A DNA stretch of 64,000 nucleotides from an uncultured virus (IMG/VR IMGVR_UViG_3300034104_004763). Taxonomy: Duplodnaviria > Heunggongvirae > Uroviricota > Caudoviricetes. The stretch lies in the IMG/VR virus record IMGVR_UViG_3300034104_004763; one strand, 5' to 3'. Made by a program: the position numbers and the translations under genes. The notes beneath the pieces were generated by a model. It saw only the letters and a list, made by a program, of their open reading frames with translations, had not been told where the DNA came from and ran no database searches. Below are positions 392 through 19,394 of this stretch, in pieces; within the stretch, counting starts at the first letter, position 1; each line of letters starts with the position of its first letter.

Positions 392-403
392 AAATAATTG
401 ATA

Positions 404-440: not shown

Positions 441-619
441 AGTATTAAAATAAAAGTTATGAGAGGTAAAAGAACATGGTGTGAAGATATTTCACCAACC
501 CTAAAATCAATTCGTTCACACAAAAATCATGGTAAAATCATGACTATAAACGAAAAACAATATGAATGTATAGGTGGTGATATATTCATAAATATCAAAA
601 CAAACCGTATAGAAAAACT

Positions 620-1628: not shown

Positions 1629-2255
1629 ATGAAAAACATACACGTATTACCAACAGACAAACCAAGTAGGTTAATAATTTATTCAACTCTATTAAATCAT
1701 TTTAGATTGCTAGATGAGCCTATTCAAGATTGGAAACACAAAAGACACATCCACATCACTAATGATGAAGAAATTAAAGAAGGAGGTTATGTTTTTTGGG
1801 AAGGTAAAATATACAAATATAGAGATTTTATGAAAATGAGAACTCCTGTGTATACTGACTATTTTTCAATCATCCTAACAACAGATACAGACCTTATCAA
1901 AGATGGCGTACAAGCTATTGATGATGAGTTTTTAGAATGGTTTGTTAAGAATCCAAGCTGTGAGTTTGTAAATATTAGACCATTTAAAAAATTTGAAGGA
2001 GAAAATGAAGTTGAGCCAATTTACAAAATAATCATTCCAAAAGAAGAACCTAAACAAACTGATTGGAAAGAATCTACTAAGGCTTTAATGGAAGCTTATG
2101 GAGATAATCCAAAAGATTTTCCTTATGAAGAACCTAAACAAGAACAAAACAAGAATAAGTATAGTGAGGAAGAAGTATTAACAATGCTATTAGATTGTAG
2201 AAGTGAAAATCCAATAGATGTAAATAAATGGTTTGAACAATTTAAAAAGAAATAA
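1629..2255 (+). CDS. Hypothetical phage protein
   Basis: 208-aa ORF with typical GTTATG start context. Confidence 0.6.
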   Translation: MKNIHVLPTDKPSRLIIYSTLLNHFRLLDEPIQDWKHKRHIHITNDEEIKEGGYVFWEGKIYKYRDFMKMRTPVYTDYFSIILTTDTDLIKDGVQAIDDEFLEWFVKNPSCEFVNIRPFKKFEGENEVEPIYKIIIPKEEPKQTDWKESTKALMEAYGDNPKDFPYEEPKQEQNKNKYSEEEVLTMLLDCRSENPIDVNKWFEQFKKK

Positions 2256-2258
2256 GTT

Positions 2259-2465
2259 ATGCAACATTCAGTAAGAGAAATAGGTAAAAGGTACGCTGAA
2301 CTATCAGCATTAAGGAATGATAAAAAATTATTCAAGGCTGATGATTTTATTAATTTTGCAAAAGAGAATACTAAAAAATACTCAATTATTGAGAATGGTA
2401 ATGACTTATTAGTAAGTACTTGGTATTCTGATGAGCTTGTAGAAGCTTATCGACGAACAATTTAA
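2259..2465 (+). CDS. Small hypothetical protein flanked by 22-bp direct repeats
   Basis: GAACAATTTAAAAAGAAATAAG at 2235-2256 and 2455-2476. Confidence 0.6.
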   Translation: MQHSVREIGKRYAELSALRNDKKLFKADDFINFAKENTKKYSIIENGNDLLVSTWYSDELVEAYRRTI

Positions 2466-2478
2466 AAAGAAATAAGAT

Positions 2479-3096
2479 ATGGAAGATTTTTTTGAAGATT
2501 TGAAAAATAGACCAAGACCAAACATATTCAGGAGAATTTGGCTTTGGTGGAAACATGACGGAAAATACCTACATAAAGAAATTAAATGGGGTATTCAAAA
2601 CCTTATATATTGGTTGCCAATTATTTGGAAAGATAGAAACTGGGATGGCCATTATATCTTTGAAGTACTAAAGCATAAGCTAAAAGCACAAGCAAAACAT
2701 ATTGGAGATAATGATCGCCATACTCGAGCACAACAAGATGCCAAAAGAATGAGATTATGTGTCAAGCTAATCCAGAAAGTACAGGACGAGGATTATGCAA
2801 TGGAGTATATGGATTATCATAAGGACAGAGTTTGGTTCACACCTTGCGAAGACAGAGAAGGATCTTCCCTATACAACTCAGAAGAAGTATGGGAAAAGTA
2901 TGATGAGTTGTTTAAAAAGTATAAACTAATATATCGAAAAGTGTTAAGAGGAGCAGGCCCATTTACTTTGAATGGTAGAGATGAGGCTGATATGAAAAGA
3001 ATTATAGCTATGAATATTAGCCATTTGAACCAGCAACGAGCTCAAGATCTTTTATTTAAAATCATAAATGAGAATATAAATCGCTGGTGGGATTAG
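2479..3096 (+). CDS. Hypothetical phage protein
   Basis: 205-aa ORF with WKDRNWD and terminal WWD motifs. Confidence 0.6.
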   Translation: MEDFFEDLKNRPRPNIFRRIWLWWKHDGKYLHKEIKWGIQNLIYWLPIIWKDRNWDGHYIFEVLKHKLKAQAKHIGDNDRHTRAQQDAKRMRLCVKLIQKVQDEDYAMEYMDYHKDRVWFTPCEDREGSSLYNSEEVWEKYDELFKKYKLIYRKVLRGAGPFTLNGRDEADMKRIIAMNISHLNQQRAQDLLFKIINENINRWWD

Positions 3097-3146
3097 TTGG
3101 AAGATTAAAATATTTTTCGTATATTTAAGTATTAAAATAAAAGGCA

Positions 3147-3581
3147 ATGAAAAAAAGAATATATTTAGACGATGTAAGAACACCAGTATCACCAAACAAT
3201 GAATGGGTAGAAGGAATTCCAGAGTGGACTGTTGTTCGTTCTTATGATGAATTTGTAAGTAAGGTAACTGAAATTGGATTAGAAAATATTGAAATAATAT
3301 CATTAGATCACGATTTAGGACCTTCAGCAATGGCTGAATGGCATTCAAATGTATATCACAATTACGAATTAAATTATGATAATATTCAGGAGAAAACTGG
3401 AATGGATTGCACAAAATGGTTGGTTAATCAATGGTTGGATGGAGCTCCTTATGTGCAAGTAAACGTTCATTCGGCTAATGCGGTAGGAGCAAGTAATATG
3501 TTAGGATTAATTTGGAATTACTGCCATATCCATAGAATACCTCAGAATAGCGTAAGATGGCGGGTACCTCATACTGTTTAG
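3147..3581 (+). CDS. Cyclic-phosphate-processing receiver-like domain protein
   Basis: IYLDDVRTP...VRSYDEF...ISLDHDLG...KTGMDC...VHSAN motifs. Confidence 0.75.
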   Translation: MKKRIYLDDVRTPVSPNNEWVEGIPEWTVVRSYDEFVSKVTEIGLENIEIISLDHDLGPSAMAEWHSNVYHNYELNYDNIQEKTGMDCTKWLVNQWLDGAPYVQVNVHSANAVGASNMLGLIWNYCHIHRIPQNSVRWRVPHTV

Positions 3582-3663
3582 TAATTAAATAGGATTAGTA
3601 AATATTCTGGGAATAAAATGTAAACTTTTTATAATTTTATGATATTTATAATAAACGAATATT

Positions 3664-4503
3664 ATGAATTACAAAAGAATTTACAATTCGATAGTTGAAA
3701 ATGCTAATAAACAGAATCGAAAAAAGAAAGCAGGAGTTTTATATGAGCGTCATCATATAATACCAAAAAGTATAGGAGGGAGTAATAATAGAGATAATTT
3801 AGTCTTACTTACACCTAAGGAACATTACATATGTCATAGATTATTAGTTGAGATACATAAAGGAACTCCTAATGAAAACAAGATGTATTACGCTATGTGG
3901 TGTATGATTAATGGAGTTGGTAATCAAAAAAGGTATGCTACTAGCTCCCGAATTTTTACTAAGCTAAGAGAGGAGTTTATAAAAACATATACAGTTAATA
4001 GGTACGATACTAGAAAAGCTATAGAACAATATGATCTAAATGGAAACTATATTACATTTTTTGATTCTGCTAAAACAGCATCTGAATTATTAAAGATAAG
4101 TAGAGGAACTATAGAAAATTGTGCTAGAGGAGAATGTAAAACTGCAGGAGGTTTTAATTGGAAATATCTAAATAGTGATAAACAGATTACTGAGGTTACT
4201 TTTGAAAAAGCAGGAGTAAAAAAGGGAAACATTCCTTGGAGTAAGGGACTAAAATTTACCCCAGGATCTCGAAATATAGAATATAAAAAAGTACATAAAT
4301 ATACCTTAGAAGGTATTTTCTTAGAGGAATATGAAACTATAAACTTAGCAGCACAGAATGTAAGTGTAAGTAGAGGAGCTATTGAAAATTGTTGTTTAGG
4401 GAAATGTAAAACTGCAGGAGGTTTTAATTGGAAATACCAAGGAAGCTCTAAAGAAATATTAAAAGTCACATACGAAAAAGCAGGAAGAAAACCAGTAAAA
4501 TAA
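3664..4503 (+). mobile_element. Free-standing HNH homing endonuclease with two NUMOD1-like repeats
   Basis: ERHHIIPKSIGGSN..NLVLLTPKEHYICHRLL; duplicated ~90-aa unit ending CKTAGGFNWKY (identical 34 nt at 4133-4166 and 4403-4436). Confidence 0.85.
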
Positions 4504-4898
4504 AAACAATTATGAAAAAAGTTAAAGCATTTTTTGATGCAACAGGAGCATTCTTTCTTTGGTGTTGGAAATATCCAACTACACCAATTGAGAATTTTCA
4601 AGATGCACGATGTAAGTATCAATTCCAAACTGACCCTGAAATATTTAAAGAACTCAGAGAATTAATAAGACAACATGACACTAAAAGAAAAAATAACAGA
4701 TGAGTATATCTGGACTACTGAACCTATAATGGATGCAGAAGAAGTTTCTGAATCAGTAGATAAAATGATAGTAATAGCAGAAGAATTTGCTATTAATTTT
4801 GCTAATTGGTATGAGTTTATGTTAAGGCAATCAGATAATCTTAACGAAAGATTTACTCCAAAAGAATTAATTGAAATGTTTAAAAAAGAAAAAGGATT

Positions 4899-5522
4899 AT
4901 GACACTAAAAAATAGAATAAAGTATTTTATAAAGGATCTAGATTTCCTAAGAGCATATAACTCTCCATTCAAAGCACCAAGACTAAAATGGTATTGTGGA
5001 AAAATTGCCTTAGGAACTCCTTATTTCTTTCCTAGAAAGTGGGTTAAAGCAACCCCAGAAAGAGCTCATGAAGCTACATTGAAATATATAAAGGAAACTG
5101 AAGATTTTAATAAACGTAATCCTGAATATACTCGTAAGGTAAGACCTTATAATGAGATATTTGCAGATAAAATGCAATGCTCATATGCTGTACCTAAAAA
5201 AATAGGATTTGATTTTGTTAGACTTGGTTGGAAGACTAAATGGAGAAGTGATGACTACAGATTTGAATGGAGTCCAATGATTTCATTTGTATTTTTTAAA
5301 TGGCAAATAGCTGTAACATTTGTAGCACCCCACCTAGACCATTATTGGGAATGCTGGTTGTATTATACAAGAGAAACAAAACATATAGCAAAAACAACAG
5401 AAGCAAGATTAGCACTTTGTAGAAAAAAAGCACCATGTACTTGGACTAGTCATAATAGTGATGGTACAAAAGAGACAATAGATTATTACAAATTAATTTT
5501 AAAAAAGAAATGGATATGGTAG
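4899..5522 (+). CDS. Hypothetical protein
   Basis: 207-aa ORF in co-oriented cluster. Confidence 0.55.
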   Translation: MTLKNRIKYFIKDLDFLRAYNSPFKAPRLKWYCGKIALGTPYFFPRKWVKATPERAHEATLKYIKETEDFNKRNPEYTRKVRPYNEIFADKMQCSYAVPKKIGFDFVRLGWKTKWRSDDYRFEWSPMISFVFFKWQIAVTFVAPHLDHYWECWLYYTRETKHIAKTTEARLALCRKKAPCTWTSHNSDGTKETIDYYKLILKKKWIW

Positions 5523-5875
5523 GAGGAGCACAACCAAAAGTACTATTATCTCAAGCAGAGGATGGTACTTTACATTTAGATAAAATGTTTGAACAGATAT
5601 TTGGAAACCCAGAAGAACACAAATACAAATTAGTAAGAGAAAGAGATGGTTTAACAAAAACATCTAAAGATATAAAATGGTTAGAGTTTGATGAGGATGG
5701 AAGATATAAAGCAGACTATCCAGAAGTAGCAGTTGGAAGAAGTTTAATCATGTCTCCATTTGGTCCTTCATTTACCTGGCAATGTACCCTTACTACTGAA
5801 ATAATTAAACAAAAAGAAGGTTACATTAAGTTCAAAACAGAAAATAGTACTTACGAGCTTTTTACTCTTAGTTAA
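5510..5875 (+). CDS. Hypothetical protein (host of the HNH insertion)
   Basis: 121-aa ORF ending FKTENSTYELFTLS. Confidence 0.6.
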   Translation: MDMVGGAQPKVLLSQAEDGTLHLDKMFEQIFGNPEEHKYKLVRERDGLTKTSKDIKWLEFDEDGRYKADYPEVAVGRSLIMSPFGPSFTWQCTLTTEIIKQKEGYIKFKTENSTYELFTLS

Positions 5876-5975
5876 TATTTATTGTTGCCTAGTCGAGGAG
5901 GTAAACAAGATATTAAAATACATACCCAAGCATTAGTAAGGACCTCGACCCTGAAAGTGCCTTGGGTTTTTTATT
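5875..5975 (+). promoter_or_regulatory. Structured 5' leader (terminator hairpin plus pseudoknot-like pairing) upstream of HNH gene
   Basis: GTCGAGG (5892-98) pairs with CCTCGAC (5943-49); ACCCAAG (5924-30) pairs with CTTGGGT (5961-67), followed by a T-tract. Confidence 0.6.
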
Positions 5976-6533
5976 ATGAAAAAATGTTCAAAATGTAAGA
6001 TTGAAAAGTCTAAGATCTTATTTGGTAAAAATCAAGGATATTGTAAAGAATGTAGAAGTATAATTGATAAAGAAAAAAGACTAAATAATCCCCAATATTT
6101 TAAAGATTGGTGGGTAAATAATAGGGATAAGAAAAGAGAATATCATTTAAATGATAAATCTAAAAGACATCATGTCCATAAATGGCGCGACTTATTATCC
6201 AACACTCTACAACAACTACATACTTCAAAATCCACAACTACCCAAGAATCATTAAAGTACTCAGCCTTAGAGTTAAAAGAGCATTTAGATAGATTAGGAA
6301 TGGATTGGAAAAATGATCATATTGATCATAAAATTCCTGTAAGTTGGTTTAATCCCTTAACCCCACCACACATTGTAAATGATTTAAGAAATTTACAACC
6401 TTTAAGTGGAGAAGAAAATAGAATTAAATTAAATAGATTTGGAACCCCAATAGAAAGTTCGTATATTATTATTATAAAAGAATATATTAAAAAAGAATAT
6501 TTAAACAATAACTACGAATTATTTAAACTTTAG
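5976..6533 (+). mobile_element. HNH endonuclease with N-terminal Zn finger (homing-endonuclease-like)
   Basis: CSKC...CKEC; HIDHKIPVSWF...NLQPLSGEENRIK. Confidence 0.8.
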
Positions 6534-6848
6534 ATTATGATTTGGATTATACTATTATTCACTTACATTATACCTACGATACTTACTATAGTAACTATAT
6601 ACCATAAGTCAAACGAAGTAACTCGTGGAGATTTAATTGGGATAATTTTAATATCACTAGTACCTCTATTTAACTTTTTTGCTGGATATATAGGAGGATT
6701 AATAGCTTTATGTGAATCAAAATCAATTAATGACTTTTTTAATAAAAGAATAAAATGAAATACGTTTTAATATTAGCAGCTTATGAATTGATAAGATCCA
6801 AAGTAATTTGGTTGTGGTATTACTTAATAAAAAAAGGAGGAGAATAAA

Positions 6849-7553
6849 ATGAGAATAACAGTAATTTCCGATACACATACAAAACATGGATTGATTCCCC
6901 TTACAGATTTACCTGGAGGAGACCTTCTCATTCACTCGGGAGACATAATGAACTCAGGGTACAATAAAAATGATATCTTAGATTTCTGTACTTGGTTTCA
7001 TTCACTTGAGCAATATGATAAAAAAATATTCATAGCAGGTAATCATGATCGTATGTTTGAAAATCATCCTGAAGCAGTAGAGGAATTATTAAACATATAT
7101 TTGGATATTGATTATCTTCAAGATGAAGGATATGATTTATATGACTTGGATACTGATACAAGTACTAAGATTTATGGTTCACCTTGGCAACCTGAATTTT
7201 ATTCTTGGGCATTCAATTTACCAAAAAATGGAATAGAGTTGGCCGGTAAGTGGGAAGCAATTCCTGACAATACAGACATTCTTATCACGCATGGTCCAGC
7301 TTTTGGTACTTTAGATACAGTAGCAGGAAGACCTTGGGATAATTTAGGATGCGAGTTATTAGCTCAACGTATTAATCAAATCCGACCTAAGATTCACATC
7401 TGCGGCCATATCCATAGTGGTAGAGGTTATGAGTTTAAAAATGGTATACACTTCTTCAATGCAGCAGTATTGGATGAGCAGTATGAGTATACTCAAAAGC
7501 CAATGACCTTTGATTGGGATAAGGATACAAATACAATAGAATTTGTAAAATAA
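6849..7553 (+). CDS. Metallophosphoesterase (calcineurin-like)
   Basis: SDTH, HSGD, AGNHD, THGP and GHIH motifs. Confidence 0.9.
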   Translation: MRITVISDTHTKHGLIPLTDLPGGDLLIHSGDIMNSGYNKNDILDFCTWFHSLEQYDKKIFIAGNHDRMFENHPEAVEELLNIYLDIDYLQDEGYDLYDLDTDTSTKIYGSPWQPEFYSWAFNLPKNGIELAGKWEAIPDNTDILITHGPAFGTLDTVAGRPWDNLGCELLAQRINQIRPKIHICGHIHSGRGYEFKNGIHFFNAAVLDEQYEYTQKPMTFDWDKDTNTIEFVK

Positions 7554-7620
7554 ATGGAAAAAGGCTTGCTTATGTGAGTCTTTTTTCGTATATTTAAGTA
7601 TAATTAAAAAGATAAAGGTT

Positions 7621-7854
7621 ATAGAAGAACAAGGAATTATTTTAGAACGAGCAACGTTTGAATTCTCACAAGATGGGAATTGCATTTCAGCATCAGATCA
7701 ATACGAATCTCTAACAATTGAATGTGAATCAGATTTAGGTATTGATAGAACTGAAGGATGTTTTTATGTTTTAAAAACAGAGAAATGGTCAATAAGTGAT
7801 GAGAATGATCTAAAAAAATTATTCGATAGAATACAAAAAGTAATTAAAAAATAA
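7621..7854 (+). CDS. 77-aa hypothetical protein with apparent ATA start (not in ORF track)
   Basis: Open frame (I)EEQGIILERATFEFSQDGNC...VIKK* directly after a promoter and AAAGATAAAGGTT initiation context. Confidence 0.55.
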   Translation: MEEQGIILERATFEFSQDGNCISASDQYESLTIECESDLGIDRTEGCFYVLKTEKWSISDENDLKKLFDRIQKVIKK

Positions 7855-7859
7855 AGGTT

Positions 7860-8216
7860 ATGTTTAAAAAATTATTCAAGTACACACCAACACCTCAAGA
7901 GCAACAATTCATAGATATTGTTACTAAACTATTAGAACATCCTAAAACATCATTAAGGATGACACCATTATCAAATAAGTATTTTCTTATTAACGAACAA
8001 AAACATTACTACATTTTATTAAAAGAGAATGGAATTCAAGTCACAAACACAAAATTCTCTTTTGCAAAATCTATACATCCTAAAGCGTATGATAAGATTA
8101 TAGAAACTATTCACGCACATATTGAAACAGACAGACAAGCATTAGAGGAAAAACTATTCAAAAATGAAACACAAATGCTGGATCAAGTAAGAACTAAATT
8201 AGAATCAACTATATAA
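7860..8216 (+). CDS. Hypothetical protein
   Basis: 118-aa ORF with canonical initiation context. Confidence 0.55.
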   Translation: MFKKLFKYTPTPQEQQFIDIVTKLLEHPKTSLRMTPLSNKYFLINEQKHYYILLKENGIQVTNTKFSFAKSIHPKAYDKIIETIHAHIETDRQALEEKLFKNETQMLDQVRTKLESTI

Positions 8217-8648
8217 TGAAACAAATAACAAACGAGTACTTAGCATCAGCCGTTGTAAATGGTAATGAAGTGAGATTAGTAACAAGAGATAAAAGATACT
8301 TTATTCATTGGGGTGAAGAAGGTATGATAAAAGCAGTACAGGAATTACTAACACCAACAGGAAGAAAACCTTCTCAAAACTCAGCACATAAGAAATTCTT
8401 AGAAGCAATAGAAGCAGCACAGTATTTAAAATTTAGTAGACTATAATGATAACATTGGTAGATAGTAAAGACGATACTTGGTTTTGGATTTTAAAGATAA
8501 TTGCATCTTGCAAAGATATCCATCACATAAATGCTTGTGAAAGACTTATAGAAAATTATAGAATAATGTATAATGATCAACTTCTTACAAGTAAATTAAA
8601 GGCCGAATTAGAAGAAGTAATTGATGAATTAGTAATAGAGAAATATAA

Positions 8649-9803
8649 ATGAACAATCTCGATAAACAATACACAGACCTTCTTAAAACAATACTAGAAC
8701 ATGGTATTGATAAAAAAGACAGAACAGGTACAGGAACAAAAAGCATTTTTGGATACACCATCAGACATAACATGAAAGATGGGTTTCCATTGCTTACAAC
8801 AAAGAAAATGCCATTCAAAACAATCGTAACAGAACTTCTTTGGTTCTTACGAGGTGATACAAATATTAAGTATTTGGTTGATAATAATTGTCATATTTGG
8901 GATGGTGATGCTTATAAGCGGTATATTATGTTACCAAAAAAATTATCTGAAGTTGTTTCTGATGGTGAAAAATTTAATGGTAGAAATTTAACAAAAGAAG
9001 AATTCATTAACAAAATCAAAACAGATGATGAGTTTGCTGAGAAGTGGGGTGAATTAGGTCCGATTTATGGTAAGCAATGGAGAAAATGGGCTAAATTTAG
9101 TGAGAAAGTATACACTAGGGAGATTAGAGAAGTACCTGAAGGAGGTAGATTTCCTGAAACGAGAAATGTTAATTGGGTTGGAGGAAGTGAAGTCGTGTAT
9201 ATTGACCAAATCGCAAACCTAATCAACGACCTTAAAACAAATCCAGACTCAAGACGATTAATGGTTAATGCTTGGAATGTTGGAGAATTAGACCAAATGG
9301 TTCTTCCACCTTGTCATTATGGATTTCAAGTTTATACAAGAGAGTTGAGTTTAGAAGAGAGAATGGATTACTACTATTCAAACATTCTTAAAAATAAAGA
9401 TTTAGAAGAAAAAGCAAGAAAACATACAGATGAGCAAAAAATGCAATATCTACAAGTTGCAGGTGTAGGTAATAATATTCCAACCAGAGCAATCTCTTTA
9501 ATGTTTAATATGCGTTCCGTTGACACTTTTTTGGGGCTTCCATTCAATATTGCCTCTTATGGATTGTTATTGGAAATAATAGCAAAAGAAGTTAATATGG
9601 TTCCTGATCAATTGATTGGTAATTTAGGTGATACTCACTTATATTCAAATCATATTGAACAAGCGAAAGAACAAATTAGTAGAGAACCTATGAAGTTACC
9701 AACTGTACACGTTAGAGATGGTATCTTCTGTAGTTCAGTTGGAGATGTAATATTAGAAAACTATGAATCACACCCATCAATAAAAGCACCATTATCAAAT
9801 TAA
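8649..9803 (+). CDS. thyA: Thymidylate synthase
   Basis: DRTGTGT, ELLWFLRG, LGPIYGKQWR, LPPCH, RSVDTFLGLPFNIASY motifs. Confidence 0.97.
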   Translation: MNNLDKQYTDLLKTILEHGIDKKDRTGTGTKSIFGYTIRHNMKDGFPLLTTKKMPFKTIVTELLWFLRGDTNIKYLVDNNCHIWDGDAYKRYIMLPKKLSEVVSDGEKFNGRNLTKEEFINKIKTDDEFAEKWGELGPIYGKQWRKWAKFSEKVYTREIREVPEGGRFPETRNVNWVGGSEVVYIDQIANLINDLKTNPDSRRLMVNAWNVGELDQMVLPPCHYGFQVYTRELSLEERMDYYYSNILKNKDLEEKARKHTDEQKMQYLQVAGVGNNIPTRAISLMFNMRSVDTFLGLPFNIASYGLLLEIIAKEVNMVPDQLIGNLGDTHLYSNHIEQAKEQISREPMKLPTVHVRDGIFCSSVGDVILENYESHPSIKAPLSN

Positions 9804-10020
9804 AATACATTTATTATGAGGACAGAAAAAGAAATTAGAAAAAAATATGAGGAAATGTTAAAACATACCGAATTATTGATGGATAAAGTTAGAAATCCAG
9901 ATAAATATGATGATGTTAATATTGAAAATATACAGGAACATATAAATGGTGAGAATGAACAACACCATTTAAATGCGTTAATAAAATGGGTTTTAAACGA
10001 TTAAAAATAAAATAAAAACT

Positions 10021-10257
10021 ATGGAAAATTACAAAGCGGATTACTACAATCCAGAAACATTTGAAAAATCAGAAATTGAAACTAAAATACCTGTTGATTT
10101 AGTTAAGAAAGTACATCAAGACTTAGAGTGTCTAAGAGGTTATTTAGTGACACCTACCTTGATTAACCCAGACAATAAGGACTCTGTTGTGTTTGGTATT
10201 ATGGATATGAACGACAAAACATTGAAATATAAGGTAACAATCACACCCAACAATTAA
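10021..10257 (+). CDS. Hypothetical cargo protein in thyA-end insertion
   Basis: 78-aa ORF whose stop lies inside the duplicated thyA tail. Confidence 0.55.
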   Translation: MENYKADYYNPETFEKSEIETKIPVDLVKKVHQDLECLRGYLVTPTLINPDNKDSVVFGIMDMNDKTLKYKVTITPNN

Positions 10258-10276
10258 AGCACCCTTAAGTAATTAA
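10241..10276 (+). repeat. Orphan duplicate of thyA 3' end
   Basis: Encodes SHPTIKAPLSN* versus thyA SHPSIKAPLSN* (9768-9803). Confidence 0.9.
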
Positions 10277-10532
10277 AAAATGGCCAAAGCAACACTTAAA
10301 TACGATATTTCAGATCCAGATGAAAATGTGGATTTTAAAAGAGCAGTTAAATCCTTTGATATGGCTATGGCTTTATGGGATATTCTTCAATTGAGAAACA
10401 AAATAGAAAATAGATTTGAAGTTCAAGATAATACCAACAATGATGTGTTTGATGGAATAGATGCAATGGCTGAAGGTATTGGAGATATTTTAGATCAACA
10501 TGGTATAATAATAGATGAATTATTAAATTAAT

Positions 10533-10871: not shown

Positions 10872-11002
10872 GTTTGGAATTATAAAATAAAATTAATATA
10901 TTATATTTATGAAAAAAGATTACACTAAAGCAATTCTTTGGACTAGCATAGTAGCAATTACAGTAGCAATTTGGACAATAATTTACAACTTAATATTTTA
11001 AT

Positions 11003-11464
11003 ATGAAATTTCAATCAACAAAAATCTTTGACGGGTACTCTACAGTATTTCGTCAATGGAGAGCAGATGGTACTCATTGCCAATTCCTACATGGTTATGG
11101 TATTTCTTTCAAAATTATCTTTGAAGGAGACCTAGATGAAAGAAACTGGGTATGGGACTTCGGAGGAATGAAAAGAGCTAAAACTTGGATTGATGGTATG
11201 CAACCTAAAGAGTGGATGGACCATATGTTCGATCACACTACAATTATAGCAGAAGATGATCCATATTTAGAAAACTTTAAAGAAATGTGGAAAGATGGAA
11301 TAATTCAATTAAGAATAATTCCAGCTACAGGAGCAGAACAGTTTGCTAAATTCATCTACGATAAAGTATCTAAATTTATTAAAATAGAAACTAATAATAG
11401 AGTAAGAGTAGTGAGCGTAGAATTTAAAGAACATAGTAAAAACTCAGCAATATATGGAGAGTAA
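11003..11464 (+). CDS. queD: 6-carboxytetrahydropterin synthase
   Basis: CQFLHGY, WVWDFG, FDHT, terminal E-H-x-x-NSAIY; adjacent to queE. Confidence 0.85.
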   Translation: MKFQSTKIFDGYSTVFRQWRADGTHCQFLHGYGISFKIIFEGDLDERNWVWDFGGMKRAKTWIDGMQPKEWMDHMFDHTTIIAEDDPYLENFKEMWKDGIIQLRIIPATGAEQFAKFIYDKVSKFIKIETNNRVRVVSVEFKEHSKNSAIYGE

Positions 11465-12239
11465 ATTAAAAAGAATAGAAGATTATAACAAAACACTCCC
11501 TATTGTAGAGCTTTACACAGCAGTACAATCAGAAGGAAGTAGAGCAGGTTATCCAACCGTAGTAATAAGAACAACAGGCTGTACTCACAGATGTTGGTTT
11601 GGTGATGGAGGTTGGTGTGACAGTTGGTACACTAGTATACATCCTGAGAAAGGACATATCAGTTTCCAAGATATTATTAACATGTATGATGCAAATCCTC
11701 ACATCACAGAGATGATGTTAACAGGAGGATCACCTACAATGCATCCAGCATTAGTAAATGAATTAACACATTTTGCACATGATAGAGGAATATTTATTAC
11801 TATTGAAACCGAAGGGAGTCACTTTTTGGAGACTGATTACCCTATTAACTTACTTAGCATTAGTCCTAAATTTTCTAATTCTGTTCCTAAAGTGGGGGTA
11901 TCGACACCTCAAGGGGACATCGTTGATGAGAAAATGATCAAGCAACATAATAAGTTAAGACTTAACTACGATGCAATTTCTAAATCAATTGCTTATCATT
12001 CTGATTATCACTTAAAACCAGTATGGGATGGAGAAGATCAAGAAGCATTAGCTGAAATTATGGCTTGTATTAAGATGTTAGACATTCCAGAAGAAAAAGT
12101 ATGGTTTATGCCAGCAGGAGATTCAAGAGAAGCTTTATTCAAATCATATCCAAAAATGTTTGATTGGGTTAGAGATAATGGATATAGATTGACATGGAGA
12201 CCACACATTATAGCTTTTGAAAGTGAGAGATGTGTGTGA
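11454..12239 (+). CDS. queE: 7-carboxy-7-deazaguanine synthase (radical SAM)
   Basis: VQSEGSRAGYPTVVIRTTGC, LTGGSP, IETEG and SISPK motifs. Confidence 0.88.
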   Translation: MESKLKRIEDYNKTLPIVELYTAVQSEGSRAGYPTVVIRTTGCTHRCWFGDGGWCDSWYTSIHPEKGHISFQDIINMYDANPHITEMMLTGGSPTMHPALVNELTHFAHDRGIFITIETEGSHFLETDYPINLLSISPKFSNSVPKVGVSTPQGDIVDEKMIKQHNKLRLNYDAISKSIAYHSDYHLKPVWDGEDQEALAEIMACIKMLDIPEEKVWFMPAGDSREALFKSYPKMFDWVRDNGYRLTWRPHIIAFESERCV

Positions 12240-12260
12240 TAATATTTAAAGATTAAAAAT

Positions 12261-12848
12261 ATGGAAAATCAAATTACAAAAAGAATGATGGACATTGTAG
12301 GTCCAGTTACAGATGAGCGACATGCTTTTGGTAAATACAAACAGGAACCTAACCCAGGAGGTTATAATGTAGTAGCACTAACAGATAAGCAAATACAGCA
12401 AGTAGAGCAGTTAGTGATAGATCACTACAAAGTAAAAAAAGTACTCTGGATGGAAATACCATCAGGACTAACTGAAGATGGAGAGCAAGCAATAGTTGCT
12501 CAAACACACAAACTACTAGATACAGATATCCTATACGAAGGAAAGACTGCTTATGTATATCAAATTCTCTTTACTCCTAAAATGTATGATCCTAAAACAA
12601 TACATCAACCAGTAAAGGATGGATGTACATTCGGACCTCTACTATATAATCCTGAAACATTCGAACCTTCAAGATCAATAACAATTACATTTAGCCCTAC
12701 CTTTCCACAAGATATAGATAGTAAAGAAGATCAGGAACAAGTAATGAAACAATTTTTACATGATAAACTTGACAAAGTTCTAACAAATCCAGAAGAGTAT
12801 ATACCAGAAGCTTTCAGAGGATGCATGCTAAGATTTGCAGCAAAATAA
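12261..12848 (+). CDS. Hypothetical protein inserted after queE
   Basis: 195-aa ORF with no recognised motif. Confidence 0.55.
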   Translation: MENQITKRMMDIVGPVTDERHAFGKYKQEPNPGGYNVVALTDKQIQQVEQLVIDHYKVKKVLWMEIPSGLTEDGEQAIVAQTHKLLDTDILYEGKTAYVYQILFTPKMYDPKTIHQPVKDGCTFGPLLYNPETFEPSRSITITFSPTFPQDIDSKEDQEQVMKQFLHDKLDKVLTNPEEYIPEAFRGCMLRFAAK

Positions 12849-13047
12849 AAGAGAGGTATAATGAGATTAAAAGAAGCACATATGACAGAATTTGATTTAC
12901 TAAACGCTGTGTGGTGGCTTTATTGTAATCAAAAAATTATTAAAGAAGAAGTAAAATTCTATGTAGAAGATTTGGATCTTGAATTAGAATTTATTACATT
13001 AGACGGATATAAATTTATAAGTACAGATAAAAAAACAACTTATTCTT

Positions 13048-13743
13048 ATGACAGAAAACAGAAAAAAAATTCATAACAATTTAGAAATCGTTCCTGTAGG
13101 TTATGCAAACGGTATAGCACCAGGTTTTCCTCTTACCGAAAGGGAAAAACAATACATGATTGAAGATGCAGCCGAAGCATATGGTCAATTTTTAGATGCA
13201 TTAGGATGCGACTGGAGAAATGATCCAAATTCAGCAGATACACCAAGACGTGTAGCTAAAGCTTATGTTAATGATTTATGGAAAGGTAGATACACTCCAA
13301 TGTCTGAAATTACCTCATTTCCTTCAGATGGTTATGATGGAATTGTAATCGAAAGAAATATTCCATTAACTTCAATGTGCTCACACCACCACCAAACAAT
13401 TGGAGGAGTAGTACATGTTGGTTATGTAGTAGGTGAAAATGGTAGAGTAATTGGTTTATCTAAATTAAATCGAATTGTAGAACACTTTGGACGTAGAGGA
13501 GCAATTCAAGAGCAATTAACTTCAGCTATTCATCAAGCAGTAGATAAGATTTGTGAAAATAATAGAGGTGTAATTGTTTCTATTGTTGGTACTCATAATT
13601 GTGTATCTTGTAGAGGTGTTAAACATCAAGGTGCTTCAATGGTTACTACTAAAGCATCAGGTGTGTTTATAGAAAATGGAAATTTAGCTAGAGAAGAGTT
13701 TTTTGACTCAATTAAAATTAATAACGGTAATCACCCAGTATAA
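13048..13743 (+). CDS. folE: GTP cyclohydrolase I
   Basis: TPRRVAK, SMCSHH, GLSKLNR, QEQLT, HNCVSCRG motifs. Confidence 0.95.
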   Translation: MTENRKKIHNNLEIVPVGYANGIAPGFPLTEREKQYMIEDAAEAYGQFLDALGCDWRNDPNSADTPRRVAKAYVNDLWKGRYTPMSEITSFPSDGYDGIVIERNIPLTSMCSHHHQTIGGVVHVGYVVGENGRVIGLSKLNRIVEHFGRRGAIQEQLTSAIHQAVDKICENNRGVIVSIVGTHNCVSCRGVKHQGASMVTTKASGVFIENGNLAREEFFDSIKINNGNHPV

Positions 13744-14147
13744 TGGCTTTAAGAGTTCATAATAAAATTTATTTAGGTTGGGATGATATTAATGATCTAG
13801 TTAACACATTATGTGAAAAAATCATTACTGATTTACCTAATATTGATTCAGTTCATGGTATAAAACGCGGTGGGTTAATTCCCGCCGTGTTAGTATCACA
13901 TAAATTAGGTTTACCTTGGTCTGATGTGATGTTACCTAATACTTTAGTAATAGATGATATTTGCGATACAGGAGTAACATTAAAAAACACAGTTGGTGTT
14001 TATACAGCAGTTTTATATCATAAACCTCATACCTCCTGTTACACCCCTAATATTTATGCTCAAAAACATGATGGTGATGAATGGATAATTTTCCCATGGG
14101 AAAAGAAAGATTCAGAATCAATACAAGATTATTTAAAAACAAATTAA
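13743..14147 (+). CDS. Type I phosphoribosyltransferase (Gpt-like)
   Basis: GIKRGGLIPA, LVIDDICDTGVT PRPP motif, WIIFPWE. Confidence 0.88.
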   Translation: MALRVHNKIYLGWDDINDLVNTLCEKIITDLPNIDSVHGIKRGGLIPAVLVSHKLGLPWSDVMLPNTLVIDDICDTGVTLKNTVGVYTAVLYHKPHTSCYTPNIYAQKHDGDEWIIFPWEKKDSESIQDYLKTN

Positions 14148-14345
14148 AACATGGCAACAACTGAACAAATTTTACAAATCACAGAAGTTATTTCAAATTT
14201 AGGAAAAGATCTTTCAACAGCAAATGAATCTAAAACAACTGCTTCACCTGAAGATTTACCTTCTATAGAAGAAAATATTCAATATCTTAAATCTGTCTTA
14301 CAAGAACATAAAAATAAACTAGAAGAACTTATTTCTAAATAATAA

Positions 14346-14732
14346 ATGGCAGAGAATTTTGATCCAAATGCTCCTTCAAGAGGGTTAGGTGATACAATTG
14401 CTAAATTTACTCATGCAACTGGTATAGCTAAAGCTGTAGAAGTTGTAACAGAAGCGTTAGGTATAGAAGATTGTGGATGTGGGGGAAGACAAGAATGGGC
14501 TAATAATTTAGTTCCATATGATCAGCCTAACTATAATGTTCATTATGATCCTAATAATACAGCTGAAGTAGAAGAAGGAATATATGAGGTAATATATGAA
14601 ATTCATGCTTCTAAAGAAGGTAATAGTTTTGATTATAAAGTAGGCGAAAAAGTTTTGATAAACGAAAATCATTTATTATATTCAAGTTGGTCTTATTACA
14701 TAATGATAGGTGCAGTTAAAAAAATAAATTAA
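14346..14732 (+). CDS. Hypothetical protein (GLGD...CGC..R motif)
   Basis: RGLGDTIAKFTHATGI...DCGCGGRQ. Confidence 0.55.
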   Translation: MAENFDPNAPSRGLGDTIAKFTHATGIAKAVEVVTEALGIEDCGCGGRQEWANNLVPYDQPNYNVHYDPNNTAEVEEGIYEVIYEIHASKEGNSFDYKVGEKVLINENHLLYSSWSYYIMIGAVKKIN

Positions 14733-14740
14733 ACAAAGTT

Positions 14741-15265
14741 ATGATTACAAATCCAAAAGTACCTTTTATTGACGAGGTAGAAGAATTTAACGCCGTAATG
14801 GGCAAACCCAACAATTATGAACCACATATCCCCGAACCAAAAGAATGGGAATTTGTATACAATTTCATCCTTGAGGAACTTGAAGAATATAAAGAGGCTT
14901 GCGAGAAAGGAGACATCATTGAGGTTCTGGATGCTTTGTGTGATATTACTTATGTTGCCACTGGGAACGGTACTATGTTACATGGCCTTAAGGATAAGAT
15001 ATGGCCGGCATATCAAGAGGTACAAGCTTCAAATTTATCAAAAGCTTGCAGAACTGAAGACGAAGCTAAAGCAACTGTCATTCAAAGATCGAGTGAGCAA
15101 GGTGAAGAATGTCATTACGAAAAAGTTGGAGACTATTTTATTGTTTATAGATCAAGAGACAGAAAAGTAATGAAAAATGTAAATTACTTTAAACCAGACT
15201 TAAAACAATTCTTCACAGATAAAGAAATTCAAAAAACTCATTTAAAACAATTAACAGGAAATTAA
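14741..15265 (+). CDS. All-alpha NTP pyrophosphohydrolase (MazG/HisE-like)
   Basis: ILEELEEY...EVLDALCDITYV...EVQASNLSK...KVMKNVNYFKPDL. Confidence 0.85.
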   Translation: MITNPKVPFIDEVEEFNAVMGKPNNYEPHIPEPKEWEFVYNFILEELEEYKEACEKGDIIEVLDALCDITYVATGNGTMLHGLKDKIWPAYQEVQASNLSKACRTEDEAKATVIQRSSEQGEECHYEKVGDYFIVYRSRDRKVMKNVNYFKPDLKQFFTDKEIQKTHLKQLTGN

Positions 15266-15279
15266 CTAAAAAATAAAAC

Positions 15280-15657
15280 ATGATAACAGCAATAATACTT
15301 TTAGCAATAATAATAGCAATCGCAGCCTACCTAACCCATACCCTTCACAAAGATGAGAAAGATGATGACTTTTTACTAAGTCCACCACCAACCTACACCA
15401 AAGAGGAACTAGACAACATTAAACTTGCAGAGGAATTGTACAACAAGGATTTAAGACCTGTAGTAGCTAAGAAAGCTAAACCAGCCCCAGAACTTGAAGT
15501 AGTTGAACCCGAGTTTGTAGCAAAGGAAGAAAAAGTATTTTCTGATGATGCAGTTATTAACACAGAAGCAATAAAAGAAATAAAGGAAGCAAAATCAGAG
15601 TTTCCAATCGACAAACCAAAGAAAAAAAGAAAATATTATCCTAAAAAAACAAAATAA
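15280..15657 (+). CDS. Membrane-anchored hypothetical protein
   Basis: N-terminal TM helix and basic C-terminus. Confidence 0.55.
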   Translation: MITAIILLAIIIAIAAYLTHTLHKDEKDDDFLLSPPPTYTKEELDNIKLAEELYNKDLRPVVAKKAKPAPELEVVEPEFVAKEEKVFSDDAVINTEAIKEIKEAKSEFPIDKPKKKRKYYPKKTK

Positions 15658-15675
15658 TATTAAATAAAGGTTATA

Positions 15676-17406
15676 ATGAGTTATAAAAATATAACAACTA
15701 CTTCATTAGGTAAAAATAGATATAATATTACTTTATGGACTGATGATGGGGTAGAACAACATGAATTCCAAAATTATGCATATGAAGTGTGTAGCCAAAA
15801 CCAGGCTACACATTTTGGTCTAAACGGAGAACCTTTAAAAAAAGTAACTTATTGGGAAGGGAATAATCCATTTATTCATTATCATGATATGCCTGTTCAT
15901 CAAAAGTTTTTGATTGACAAATACGGCATAAATGATGAACCTTCTACTACTCATCAAGAAATATTCTTTGATATTGAGATTGAAATGGGTGGTGCACTTA
16001 CACCTGAGTATATTAGAAAAGCACCTAAACCAGTTACATCAATTGCTTGGTGGCACAAACAAGAGGATAAGTGGTATATTCTAATTTTAGATAAAGAAAA
16101 TAAAATTGAAAAAACTACTATAGGGAATAAGCACATTATTCCTGTACCTAATGAAAGAGAGTTATTAAATAAATGGTTAAATTATTTAAATAAAGTTAAT
16201 CCTGATATTTTAATTGGTTATAATAGTGATTATTTCGATATACCTTACCTATATTATAGAATCTTAAATCAATTAGGTGAACGTAGAGCTAGTGCTTTAT
16301 CTCCAATAGGTAAAGTTAAAGAACAAAAGTATACTAGAGATGATGGAGTTGCAATTTATAATGAAGATCAACCAATAAGAATAGAAGGAATGTATTCTCT
16401 TGATTATATTCGTTTACATAAAAAATATTCATTTGCTGATGAACCTTCTTACAAATTAGATTCATTGGGAGAAAAATATTGTAAATTAGGTAAAATTGAA
16501 TATGAAGGTAGTTTAGATAGATTATTTGAAACTGATAAAGATAAATTCATTGAATATAACTTTCGAGACGTTGAAATCCTAAAAGCATTAGATAATAAAT
16601 TCAATTATATCAGTTTAACTAAAAATCTAGCACATAAAGGTAAAATTCACTATGATGATGTTTATCAATCATCTAAAATTCATGATGGTGCTATTTCAGC
16701 CTTCTTATTATCAGAAGATATAATTCCACCTTCACGTGATAGAAACCCAATTAAAAAAGCTAATTATGCTGGTGGTTATTTGTTTTGCCCTAAAGCAGGT
16801 TTATACCGCTATATGTTTGATGAGGATTTAACTTCACTATATCCTTCAATTATTATGTCTTTAAACATTGGTAAGGAAACATTAGTAGGTAGAATTATTG
16901 ATTTGAACGATAGAAACAATCACTTAGGTCTAAATGACTTAATAAATGATACTGAAGATAAACCGCGTACTACTGAATGGTTTACTAACAAAGATAAATT
17001 CAATAAAATTGATTGGACTTCTTCTAAAATAGTTAAACTACTCCAACAATATAATTTGGCTATCTCAGCAAATGGTGTTATCTTTCGTACAGATAAAGAG
17101 TCCGTATTATCAACTATCTTAAATAAATGGTTTGATGAAAGGGTTTTATATAAAAACTTAATGAAAAAAGCTTACAAAGCCGGAGACACAATAGGAGGTG
17201 AAAAATATCATTTATTACAATATACAATGAAGATCTTACTTAACTCACTTTATGGTGCTACAGCATTACCAACATTTAGATATGGTAATGTAATTTTATC
17301 AGAAGCAATTACATTAAGTGGTCAACGCATTATTCAAGAATCAGCACTTTGTGCTAATAGACATATGAATCAAGTAATTAGAGGTGAAATTAAATTAGAG
17401 ATATGA
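15676..17406 (+). CDS. polB: Family B DNA polymerase, N-terminal half (3'-5' exonuclease, motifs A and B)
   Basis: FDIEIE, GYNSDYFDIPY, YNFRDV, DLTSLYPSII, KILLNSLYG; lacks motif C. Confidence 0.92.
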   Translation: MSYKNITTTSLGKNRYNITLWTDDGVEQHEFQNYAYEVCSQNQATHFGLNGEPLKKVTYWEGNNPFIHYHDMPVHQKFLIDKYGINDEPSTTHQEIFFDIEIEMGGALTPEYIRKAPKPVTSIAWWHKQEDKWYILILDKENKIEKTTIGNKHIIPVPNERELLNKWLNYLNKVNPDILIGYNSDYFDIPYLYYRILNQLGERRASALSPIGKVKEQKYTRDDGVAIYNEDQPIRIEGMYSLDYIRLHKKYSFADEPSYKLDSLGEKYCKLGKIEYEGSLDRLFETDKDKFIEYNFRDVEILKALDNKFNYISLTKNLAHKGKIHYDDVYQSSKIHDGAISAFLLSEDIIPPSRDRNPIKKANYAGGYLFCPKAGLYRYMFDEDLTSLYPSIIMSLNIGKETLVGRIIDLNDRNNHLGLNDLINDTEDKPRTTEWFTNKDKFNKIDWTSSKIVKLLQQYNLAISANGVIFRTDKESVLSTILNKWFDERVLYKNLMKKAYKAGDTIGGEKYHLLQYTMKILLNSLYGATALPTFRYGNVILSEAITLSGQRIIQESALCANRHMNQVIRGEIKLEI

Positions 17407-17554
17407 AAAAATTAGGATTTGAAACTCAAGATAATGGAGTAATATTTACAACCACTCTACCAGCACGTTGGATTGCTGATCTATTAGTTAGGTTGGGGTA
17501 CTTAACAAAACTGTTTAAGTACTGTTATGTAATAAATAAAAAACACTTAATATA

Positions 17555-17818
17555 ATGGCATTAAAAGGACAATCAATTAGAAACGGGGTTACTATTAACG
17601 TAAATGGAGTTAAAGCTGAAAAACAATTAGTTATTGAACTATCTGAAAATTGGGATGCTTCACAAGAAAAATTCTTTAAGAAAATGTTACAGCAAGGAGG
17701 TAAATGTAAAGTTAATGGAAACTCATTTGAAATAATTCTTAAAGAAAGATCAGATATAGATTCAAAAGGAAACAGACCAATTAACCTACCACCAGTACCA
17801 GGAGAAAGAACATTTTAA
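17555..17818 (+). CDS. Hypothetical protein between the polB halves
   Basis: 87-aa ORF; a ~50-aa ORF (17403-17555) precedes it. Confidence 0.6.
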   Translation: MALKGQSIRNGVTINVNGVKAEKQLVIELSENWDASQEKFFKKMLQQGGKCKVNGNSFEIILKERSDIDSKGNRPINLPPVPGERTF

Positions 17819-17819
17819 T

Positions 17820-18755
17820 ATGAAGCATTTAGAAGATACTCCATGGTGGATATGTGATGAAGGTGATTTTAACTTTTGTGCCTATGTGGACACAGACTCT
17901 AATTACTTTAATGCTGAGCCTTTATTAAAGTATCTATACCCTGATTTTGATGAAAAGCCTGACCAGGAAAAAGATGATTTACTAGAGAAAGTAGCTCTTA
18001 AATACCAAGATATTATAACAGAACATTATAACACACTCGCTAGAGACGCCTTTAATATTACTACACACCGATTAGAAATGAAAACCGAGTGTGTTATTCG
18101 TTCTGCTTACTTTAGAGCCACAAGACGTTATGCTCAATGGATTACTAAAAAAGAAGGTATAGCTAAAGAGGAGTTAGATATTAAAGGATTAGAATTTAAA
18201 AAAGCTAATTTCCCAAAATATTTTGGTAAGTTTTATCAAGAAATTCTTGAACTAATTATTAAAGGTACTGCACAAAGTATTGTTGATAAAAAAATTCATG
18301 AATTTAGACAAGAAGCTACTTCATCTGATGTTGACTTTACTTTAATTGGTAATCCTACATCTGTTAAAACTTTAAATGAGTATGTAGCTGCTCATCCTAG
18401 ACCAGGTAAAATACTATCTGAAATAAAATCCGGAGCAGGTGCTTCTGTTAAAGCTGCTGTTAAACATAATGACCTATTAAGATTTTGGCAATTAGATTCT
18501 AAACACAGTCAAATAGTACAGGGTGATAAAGTAAAATGGGTTTATTTAAAAAACAATCCTTACAATATAGAAGCAATTGCCTTTTTAGAATTTGATATGG
18601 CTGATAAAATTAAAGATTTTATTAATGAATACATTGATAGAGGTAAAAGTTTTGAAACTATATTACAGAAAAAATTACAAGGGTTTTATACAGATCTTGA
18701 ATGGGTACTTCCGCCAAGTAATCCTAATATCTTTAAATTCTTTATGTTTTCCTAA
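17820..18755 (+). CDS. polB: Family B DNA polymerase, C-terminal half (motif C, thumb)
   Basis: YVDTDS motif C, RRYA, IKGLE. Confidence 0.9.
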   Translation: MKHLEDTPWWICDEGDFNFCAYVDTDSNYFNAEPLLKYLYPDFDEKPDQEKDDLLEKVALKYQDIITEHYNTLARDAFNITTHRLEMKTECVIRSAYFRATRRYAQWITKKEGIAKEELDIKGLEFKKANFPKYFGKFYQEILELIIKGTAQSIVDKKIHEFRQEATSSDVDFTLIGNPTSVKTLNEYVAAHPRPGKILSEIKSGAGASVKAAVKHNDLLRFWQLDSKHSQIVQGDKVKWVYLKNNPYNIEAIAFLEFDMADKIKDFINEYIDRGKSFETILQKKLQGFYTDLEWVLPPSNPNIFKFFMFS

Positions 18756-18812
18756 TTATATTTGATATTTATAATAAGACGGGAAATCACCCGTCTTGTA
18801 AAATACAATATT

Positions 18813-19349
18813 ATGGTAATATATCAAATTGAAAATTTAATTAATGGTAAAAAGTATATTGGTAGAGATTCTTTAAATAGACCTGGGTATCTAGGAGGAG
18901 GAACTGCTATTAAAAACGCTATTAAAAAATATGGTAGAAAAAACTTTAGTAAGATTATTATTGAAGTTTGTAAAGATTATAAACATCTCTTAGAAAGAGA
19001 AGAATATTGGTTAAATTTTTATAATGTAGTTAATAATCCTAATTTTTATAATATGATTACATCTTCAAATGGGTGGGAAAAAGGTAAACCAAGACCTGAA
19101 AAATTAGGTAAACCAAGAAGTCAAGAAACCAAAGATAAGATTAGTAAAGCTGGTAAAGGTAAAACAGGTAAAACATCTGGCAAACCTATTCCTGTAATAC
19201 AATATAAATACGAAATTATTAAAACAAAAATAGCTGAATTTCCTTCAGCTGCCGAAGCATCTAGAGTAACAGGAATATTATCTTGTGATATAAGAGCCGT
19301 AATAAAAGGAAAACAAAATACAGCAGGGGGTTTTATATGGGGTAAATAA
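18813..19349 (+). mobile_element. GIY-YIG homing endonuclease (Seg-like) with NUMOD3/NUMOD1 motifs
   Basis: MVIYQIENLINGKKYIG; RSQETKDKIS; TAGGFIW. Likely start is ATG 18813 rather than 18762. Confidence 0.85.
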
Positions 19350-19394
19350 CCTCCAGCAAATCCACTAATACATAAATTTTTTACATTCAACTAA
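19350..19394 (+). repeat. Orphan duplicate of polB-C 3' end
   Basis: PPANPLIHKFFTFN* versus PPSNPNIFKFFMFS* (18711-18755); its TAA overlaps the next ATG. Confidence 0.88.

Follow-up and report, generated by a model that had tools for sequence, protein, structure and literature searches.

How small genes enter the packed genomes of phages is a long-standing question, and the usual answer is illegitimate recombination plus selection. The first 64 kb (hereafter the window) of the 117,301-nucleotide (nt) virus record IMGVR_UViG_3300034104_004763 raises this question in a particular form: at the ends of five genes, namely ORF1629, ORF5510 (ORF, open reading frame), thyA, queE and polB-C, the last codons of the gene reappear downstream, on the far side of an inserted cassette. 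An earlier note on this DNA had pointed to the five pairs of tail copies, and all of them are present in the sequence, with a length of 4-14 codons plus stop in place of the 7-15 codons that the note had given. What produced these stranded tails, and do they have a use? Break repair by homing endonucleases probably makes the stranded ends, which would later be reused as short recombination arms that carry passenger genes. The window is best read as holding two nuclease cassettes (at ORF5510 and polB-C) and two nuclease-free derivatives (at thyA and queE).

The genome has 29% GC and, according to a Pfam scan of 24 + 57 of its proteins (81 in total, a partial proteome), a T4-like portal and terminase. 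Near-identical sequence is contained in lake-water metagenomes, and no close cultured relative was found, the one match being at 26%. That the host belongs to the Bacteroidota is a guess from composition and A-rich starts. With respect to introns, no Rfam family was found in window positions 1-21000 at E<=0.5. In what follows, L-numbers denote loci of relatives, and X-numbers denote contigs from other runs or lake samples.

The tail copies were scored by comparing the last 20 codons of each gene with the stops within the next 1.5 kb, using distant regions as the null; the scan took in the 171 genes called over the full 117,301 nt. The top four scores belong to thyA (60), polB-C (55), ORF5510 (41) and ORF1629 (35), with 4 genes observed at a score of at least 35 and 0.375 expected. 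The queE gene reaches no more than 14 when compared with its own tail; its pair was confirmed via relatives, and with these included its support exceeds that of ORF1629. The note's further point that the copies agree better in amino acids (aa) than in nucleotides is correct by 1-7 points (83 vs 82% for thyA, 64 vs 62% for polB-C and 67 vs 60% for ORF5510), a marginal difference that carries little weight.

The polB-C locus comprises the following features:

18711-18755 and 19350-19394, + strand: the two polB-C copies, identical at 28/45 nt and 9/14 aa
18696-18755, + strand: foreign working polB-C tail, PPSNPNIFKFFMFS and stop, with ~60-90 nt replaced
18776-18797, + strand: hairpin 5' of the GIY-YIG start, fold z -4.8
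18813-19349, + strand: GIY-YIG/NUMOD homing-endonuclease-like gene (Pfam), 178 aa, with 80% identity to the L090 gene
19350-19394, + strand: stranded polB-C tail, PPANPLIHKFFTFN and stop, TAATG-coupled to the clamp gene and with 1 mismatch/45 nt to cassette-free L048

Among close relatives, the clamp gene is joined directly to polB-C in 28/29 distinct ends, 7 of which have the same TAATG as the orphan. An orphan-like PANPLIHK is present at 17/29 close polB-C ends, and the window's working-tail type at 2/29. The body of polB-C differs from L022 at 40/540 positions and from L009/L274 at 117-119/540; its tail has 10-11/60 mismatches to the distant L009/L274 and 21/60 to the close L022/L048. The GIY-YIG cassette is patchy, being found at 2/30 close polB-C ends (window counted), together with the 60-90-nt foreign tract. 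L090 has a 249-aa nuclease at the same site that is 80% identical to GIY-YIG 18813, a different polB-C tail and a 23-nt orphan, and represents a second event at the same gene end. The working tail is foreign at polB-C, but the earlier note's proposal of a diverged donor tail is not supported for every cassette: at thyA the copies are 7/39 nt apart (the median between 69 working alleles), and at ORF1629 they are identical.

At ORF5510, the cassette contains an HNH-type nuclease:

5875 (tail end) and 6503-6533, + strand: the two ORF5510 copies, identical at 18/30 nt and 6/9 aa
5843-5875, + strand: working ORF5510 tail, NSTYELFTLS and stop, an odd allele among relatives
5876-5975, + strand: leader of the HNH gene, with two predicted hairpins whose loops (5892-5898 and 5943-5949) are complementary; fold z only -1.6
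5976-6533, + strand: HNH/EndoVII-like nuclease gene (phrog_1035, E 2.9e-14), fused in frame to the stranded tail
6503-6533, + strand: stranded ORF5510 tail, NYELFKL and stop, compared with L011

A 40-nt run across the stop and the next start is the same in the window orphan and in cassette-free L011. In L162, a GIY-type gene stands at the ORF5510 end with a different orphan, as a second event. The mobility of HNH 5976 is read from this one genome, because no close relative is found at the same site (the best match is 40%, at another site). The two nuclease cassettes named by the earlier note are thus borne out, GIY-YIG 18813 by Pfam and the HNH-like 5976 by PHROG 1035 (E 3e-14).

At queE, the cassette has no nuclease in the window and has one in relatives:

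12222-12239 and 12844-12861, + strand: the two queE copies, identical at 10/18 nt
12219-12239, + strand: working queE tail, ESERCV and stop, a minority allele, followed by an HNH gene in L004 and L009
12240-12260, + strand: spacer common to the HNH-bearing alleles L004/L009, which resembles a decayed older queE end
12261-12848, + strand: 195-aa passenger ORF12261, of no family; the same passenger and stranded tail occur in L052
12845-12861, + strand: stranded queE tail, KREV and stop, TAATG-coupled to ORF12861; its ATAA overlaps the passenger stop

The end ED(K/Q)REV and stop is found at 34/42 queE ends of relatives, and L010 matches both the queE orphan and the next gene. The HNH gene after queE in L004/L009 belongs to phrog_1271 (E 4e-13 to 7e-13), and L009 is a second event at this end, with a different tail and orphan length. 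The window passenger and its L052 counterpart are identical at 625/745 nt. In L034 (10774-10804) and L053 (4601-4620), an altered queE tail is almost adjoined by the orphan end, and no passenger is present, an arrangement that may be the end state after cargo loss.

At polB-C, ORF5510 and queE, therefore, cassette-free relatives use the downstream copy, as the earlier note had anticipated, and the downstream copy is the displaced resident end because these relatives join it to the next gene. The coupling through TAATG that the note described is present at both polB-C/clamp and queE/ORF12861.

The evidence on a later use of stranded ends comes from thyA:

9765-9803 and 10238-10276, + strand: the two thyA copies, identical at 32/39 nt and 10/12 aa
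9765-9803, + strand: working thyA tail, ESHPSIKAPLSN and stop, an ordinary Ala-type allele
9816-10004, + strand: 62-aa passenger ORF9816, with a homolog behind the GIY-YIG gene in L457
10021-10257, + strand: 78-aa passenger ORF10021, which ends in 7-8 codons that are the thyA tail in another frame
10238-10276, + strand: stranded thyA tail, QSHPTIKAPLSN and stop, 3 nt 5' of ORF10280

ORF10021 itself has no GenBank phage match. In its family, a complete K-x-P-L-x-N-stop orphan is found in 14/20 contexts and is followed by 13 different next genes; 2/20 contexts are in-frame fusions, and 4/20 are without a complete orphan. Four of the genes that follow an orphan directly adjoin thyA elsewhere (L441/L215, L226/L248, L448/L250 and L453/L189), which gives four filled/empty pairs with a common next gene, at a divergence too high for the crossover to be placed. 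The orphan serine codon is TCA or AGT, as in working thyA tails, and in the 19 untranslated nt of the orphan most of the variation is at third codon positions of the thyA reading frame (15 vs 4 and 6 in 12 rows), a count in which the filter fixes P, L and N and 5/20 rows were not recovered. Repeated crossovers between orphans and working tails would follow, because 13 neighbours and thyA-like codon variation are unlike a single decaying scar. Since the complete orphan precedes so many different genes, the stranded thyA end is likely to act as a second, portable homology arm.

A loose thyA pattern (5/8 residues) has 69 control matches in 3.24 Mb, and a strict one (7/8) is reached by 9/11 thyA cases and by 0 in the control. 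Three further proposals were set aside. Orphans that start at a fixed cut site are ruled out by ORF10021 relatives, in which the match reaches at least 45 nt; selective change of orphans at the Ala codon finds no support (3 vs 1 of 12, p 0.59); and contigs joining 9731 to 10238 were not counted as empty alleles, as their short side has only 21-24 letters.

The link between thyA passengers and nucleases is provided by relatives in which an I-TevI-like GIY-YIG family (Pfam) lies behind thyA. In L457, the order is non-Ala thyA, GIY-YIG, ORF9816 homolog, ORF10021 homolog and orphan, and this cassette is identical to that of the window at 410/493 nt. A GIY-type gene is directly 5' of the ORF10021 homolog in L460, L461 and L465; in L459, L463 and L466, the non-Ala tail is retained and the nuclease is absent. 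The claim that nuclease-free cargo rides in nuclease cassettes is thus substantiated by L457 at thyA and by L004/L009 at queE, and it is because of these loci and L052 that the thyA and queE cassettes of the window are read as derivatives of nuclease cassettes. The window's own three nuclease-free cassettes are as the earlier note had described, their four passenger ORFs having no Pfam or PHROG match at E 0.001 and no usable Atlas match that would indicate a function.

The Ala of the K-A-P motif is changed to F, M, Y or L at 17/17 GIY-YIG-linked thyA ends vs 6/84 without GIY-YIG, a contrast whose strength is overstated because the two sets came from different fetch queries, the GIY loci with a GIY query and so not independently, and because, in a quick tree with 90 rows, non-Ala thyA genes mostly group in one part. 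The independent evidence comes from L366/L363, the sole pair nested among Ala types (support 93 in the same tree); the number of changes counted on this tree (6) was not used, as L363, L369 and L373 are unlabelled. L366 and L363 have a common spacer and last 30 nt (3 differences) and diverge just upstream, where the 30 nt before the L366 tail match nuclease-free L004/L022/L215. Tail and nuclease therefore moved as a unit.

Two other arrangements were seen at thyA. In L189, an ORF12261 homolog is directly behind thyA and is followed by a 15-nt piece of thyA tail, so that one passenger family has two docks. In L446 (278-2474), thyA is divided into two ORFs, of 163 and 235 aa, by a 233-aa ORF without a Pfam match and an ORF10021 homolog; the latter bears a partial thyA-tail copy, and a GIY-YIG gene comes after the second thyA half.

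From these arrangements, a route can be proposed. A free-standing GIY-YIG or HNH nuclease would cut a conserved gene (polB-C, ORF5510, queE or thyA) within its last 10-20 codons. The left end would then be repaired on the donor homolog, which copies a presumably cut-resistant tail and the DNA following it, and would leave the anatomy described above. The first time, the right end would join at a few matching bases, stranding the recipient tail downstream with the next start intact. Such a first join at microhomology fits, because the native ends of passengers (L229 in the case of ORF10021, L033 in that of ORF12261, and L052 vs L213 in another family) have 4-10 nt in common with the tail at the junction. 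Thereafter, the stranded tail could act as right homology arm for any recipient, whichever gene follows the target. Passengers between nuclease and arm would co-travel, and would remain after loss of the nuclease or after the tail recombines back; these states are seen in relatives, and their order is proposed here. One extension is possible and is offered tentatively: passengers fused to the thyA end may be non-autonomous homing elements with their own address, inserted at the thyA of co-infecting relatives by thyA-end-specific GIY-YIG cutting in cis or trans, which would make one gene end a general docking site across a large phage lineage, without integrase or synteny.

Besides the fetch bias and tree grouping of the non-Ala ends and the two limits on the third-position count, several results weigh against this account. 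The window thyA tail is Ala-type, and its 7/39 nt divergence from the orphan is no greater than among ordinary alleles. In the thyA orphan, the first 26 nt double as the passenger end, and coding alone could preserve them. Nuclease-free ORF10021 cassettes lie directly (or via ORF9816) behind Ala-type tails in six cases vs behind non-Ala tails in three, and a recognisable orphan is missing from most thyA-GIY cassettes. No empty thyA-ORF10280 allele was found among 6 homologs, and no nuclease was seen with the thyA passengers and orphans of L005, L192, L201, L203, L208, L213 and L272. Among nuclease-adjacent gene ends generally, 31/35 score <24 in the scan of relatives described below. At ORF1629, finally, the identical copies give no polarity, the end is common to several gene families, and no empty ORF1629-ORF2479 allele was found.

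The strongest alternative dispenses with nucleases, which would be mere passengers: phage recombination by one homologous and one short-homology crossover would insert the cassette, and selection would keep the upstream gene and the next start intact. Because genes are packed with gaps of 0-5 nt, a harmless right junction must fall in the upstream tail, and a published case exists in genes 67/68 of mycobacteriophage Island3 (PMC3029335). The seven thyA cassettes outside the ORF10021 family in which no nuclease is seen are as expected from such recombination, as are the near-identical upstream and orphan thyA copies, which are common (scores 53/57, 56/56 and 49/53). It does not predict the clustering (orphans at 10/73 thyA ends, and none in six families of which 80-93 ends each were sampled), the codon changes specifically beside nucleases, or the nuclease within the same cassette in L457, L460, L461 and L465. 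We consider it a less likely general explanation, and one that probably accounts for some single cases.

Less probable still, and on balance unlikely, is that nucleases made the scars once and that the stranded ends have since been inert, kept for the start region of the next gene or the last codons of the passenger. Orphans do retain native spacing (TAATG or 3 nt), three of the five overlap a passenger or nuclease reading frame, and the 4/20 ORF10021 contexts lacking a complete orphan would be expected of such scars. A scar that is inert should lie next to a single gene and decay irrespective of codon position, whereas 13 next genes and 19 untranslated nt that vary like thyA codons are observed.

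Integrases use tRNA or icd genes as attachment sites, and a dedicated site-specific or circle-integration system might use gene ends likewise, as the flanking direct repeats, the exact 21-nt repeat at ORF1629 and the repeated use of the thyA end could suggest. This is very improbable: orphan length varies per site (45 vs 23 nt at polB-C; about 20-45 nt at thyA), which is unlike a fixed crossover with a cognate recombinase, the five sites have no common sequence, and no integrase or recombinase family was found among the 81 proteins of the partial proteome in the Pfam scan.

Chimeric assembly of co-occurring relatives, conceivable for a metagenomic record from lakes that hold many related thyA alleles, has a negligible chance of being correct, for zero-difference contigs from five other runs (X3, X4, X5, X6 and X8) refute it at four of the five loci, and the same anatomy recurs in dozens of independent contigs. 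X4 spans the HNH cassette (4947-6868); X3, X4 and X6 span polB-GIY-clamp, where L282 also equals the window over 2569/2569 nt; X4 and X8 span the queE cassette; and each thyA junction is spanned by contigs (X5, X6 and X3). For ORF1629, no bridging piece was found among the matches listed. The tail duplications are thus not an assembly artefact at four loci.

The earlier note had envisaged one general route of gene addition, and this generality is not supported. Among 3319 deduplicated gene ends from 281 loci of relatives and the genome itself, 21 score at least 24, vs 0.3 by permutation, which was used as the null in place of an upstream control that is not clean (its top scores mirror real events). 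The 21 are not all orphans, as they include paralog arrays (L210, L022 and L004) and a probable chance match (L109). By family, orphan-type matches occur at 10/73 thyA ends, 2/22 ends of the ORF5510 family, 1/83 polB-C ends (not counting L090, where there is too little room for scoring) and 1/76 queE ends; most families have none, among them the six sampled 80-93 times each. They are found at 4/35 ends before nuclease-like genes vs 17/3284 other ends. No orphan is present at the 0.4-2.3 kb polB-C/clamp insertions of distant relatives. The route is real and not universal, being concentrated at a few gene ends.

The fifth locus, ORF1629, stands apart:

2235-2255, + strand: end of ORF1629, EQFKKK and stop, left copy of an exact 21-nt repeat (21/21 nt)
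2259-2465, + strand: 68-aa passenger ORF with no homolog found, which at its 3' end overlaps the right copy in a different frame
2455-2475, + strand: right copy of the 21-nt repeat, 3 nt 5' of ORF2479

In L234, another gene with such an end precedes the ORF2479 homolog, and no nuclease-bearing relative of this cassette is known. The exact repeat is compatible with a crossover within a shared gene end and cannot be tied to a nuclease. FEQFKKK-like ends are common to several unrelated small-gene families, in arrays (L161, 249-1660; window 2235-2255), and lake contigs continue beyond position 2255 with many different sequences.

Further gene ends show related arrangements. ORF3147 ends in WRVPHTV and stop directly before HNH 3664 (window 3540-4503), with no orphan visible, and its relatives have a (V/I)QI(E/Q)HTV-like end in 23/23 rows listed; this may be a sixth cassette, one that lacks a stranded end. 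The L090 contig has a second cassette (959-1750) with a GIY-like gene and the stranded end of an ORF14741 homolog. A mirror case is found in L246 (1085-1150), where a stranded 22-codon gene head is followed by a GIY-YIG gene and then by the full gene with a different head. A divergent folE tail precedes GIY-YIG in L045 and L049 and is present without GIY-YIG in L042 and L079. In the window, polB is split into genes of 576 and 311 aa with an 87-aa ORF between (15676-18755), likewise in relatives, and an extra 50-aa ORF is found at 17403 inside this region. Lastly, a TCGTATATTTAAGTA-like intergenic element is repeated at window positions 383-460, 1000-1060, 3097-3146 and 7554-7620, often after a hairpin and with many copies in relatives, and is likely a phage promoter.

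The anatomy described here is known from fungal mORFs and from one mycobacteriophage insertion; the passengers and the likely reuse of the arm are added here. In fungal mitochondria, mORFs make gene hybrids at atp6 of Allomyces macrogynus and at atp6, atp9, cox2 and nad3 of Glomus (PMC3630166). Like mORFs, the present cassettes combine a foreign C-terminus, an endonuclease and a displaced native C-terminus that matches an ORF-less relative (PMC3630166). A gene end duplicated around an endonuclease ORF is found at polB-C/GIY 18813 and ORF5510/HNH 5976, and a downstream copy equal to that of element-free relatives at polB-C, ORF5510 and queE; the window's thyA, queE and ORF1629 cassettes contain no endonuclease. 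Unlike mORFs, they occur in phage, with tails of 15-60 nt as opposed to 51-280 nt, and with HNH besides GIY-YIG nucleases (PMC3630166). Passenger genes within the cassette, nuclease-free derivatives and an orphan reused before many genes are further differences.

In T4, one-sided break repair at microhomology occurs during homing (PMC2988022). Like the T4 seg and mob genes, the nuclease genes here are intergenic GIY-YIG/HNH genes beside essential genes, with co-conversion and with microhomology junctions that have one homologous arm (PMC2988022). They are free-standing, that is, outside any intron or intein and behind tails with their own stops, and co-conversion with patchy presence is seen at polB-C and in L366/L363 at thyA. 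The T4 enzymes differ in cleaving at a distance of hundreds to thousands of bases from the gene, with synteny on both flanks (PMC2988022), whereas the target here would be the last codons of the adjacent gene, and the right arm travels with the cassette. The term 'duplicat' has 0 matches in this review of T4 homing.

In Island3, the end of gene 68 repeats the last ~18 codons of gene 67, and recombination over ~50 bp was proposed (PMC3029335). It is likewise a nuclease-free gene that ends in a copy of the upstream gene's tail, but as described it is a single in-frame case with no nuclease link, whereas the insertions here recur at one gene end with at least 7 passenger families, often out of frame, and the same junction meets many neighbours (13 next genes after the 14 complete thyA orphans). 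The HEG-islands of ICP1-like phages resemble the present cassettes in that nucleases are proposed to mobilise cargo; they consist of essential operons between two nucleases and have no discrete ends, (PMC10448857), in contrast to the small genes here, which are flanked by one nuclease and by a gene-end arm of 20-45 nt. With SegB in phage T6, a nuclease break is similarly resolved at microhomology and a gene end is truncated, the outcome being tandem amplification inside one genome rather than insertion with tail replacement (PMC13096335). In a full-text search that covered few subscription papers and no supplements, no description was found of passengers fused to a gene-end arm that can be reused, or of a free-standing GIY-YIG linked to the thyA end.

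For the biology of these phages, the junctions of small-gene entry can still be read in natural populations, where filled, empty and intermediate states are found, and they tie the gain of passengers to nucleases whose targets appear to be gene ends. This offers an explanation of how free-standing nucleases may home where the downstream neighbour is hypervariable, and the one Ala codon in the thyA end provides a sharp point for a biochemical test. In such genes, the mosaic state of the last 20 codons can mislead both phylogeny and annotation.

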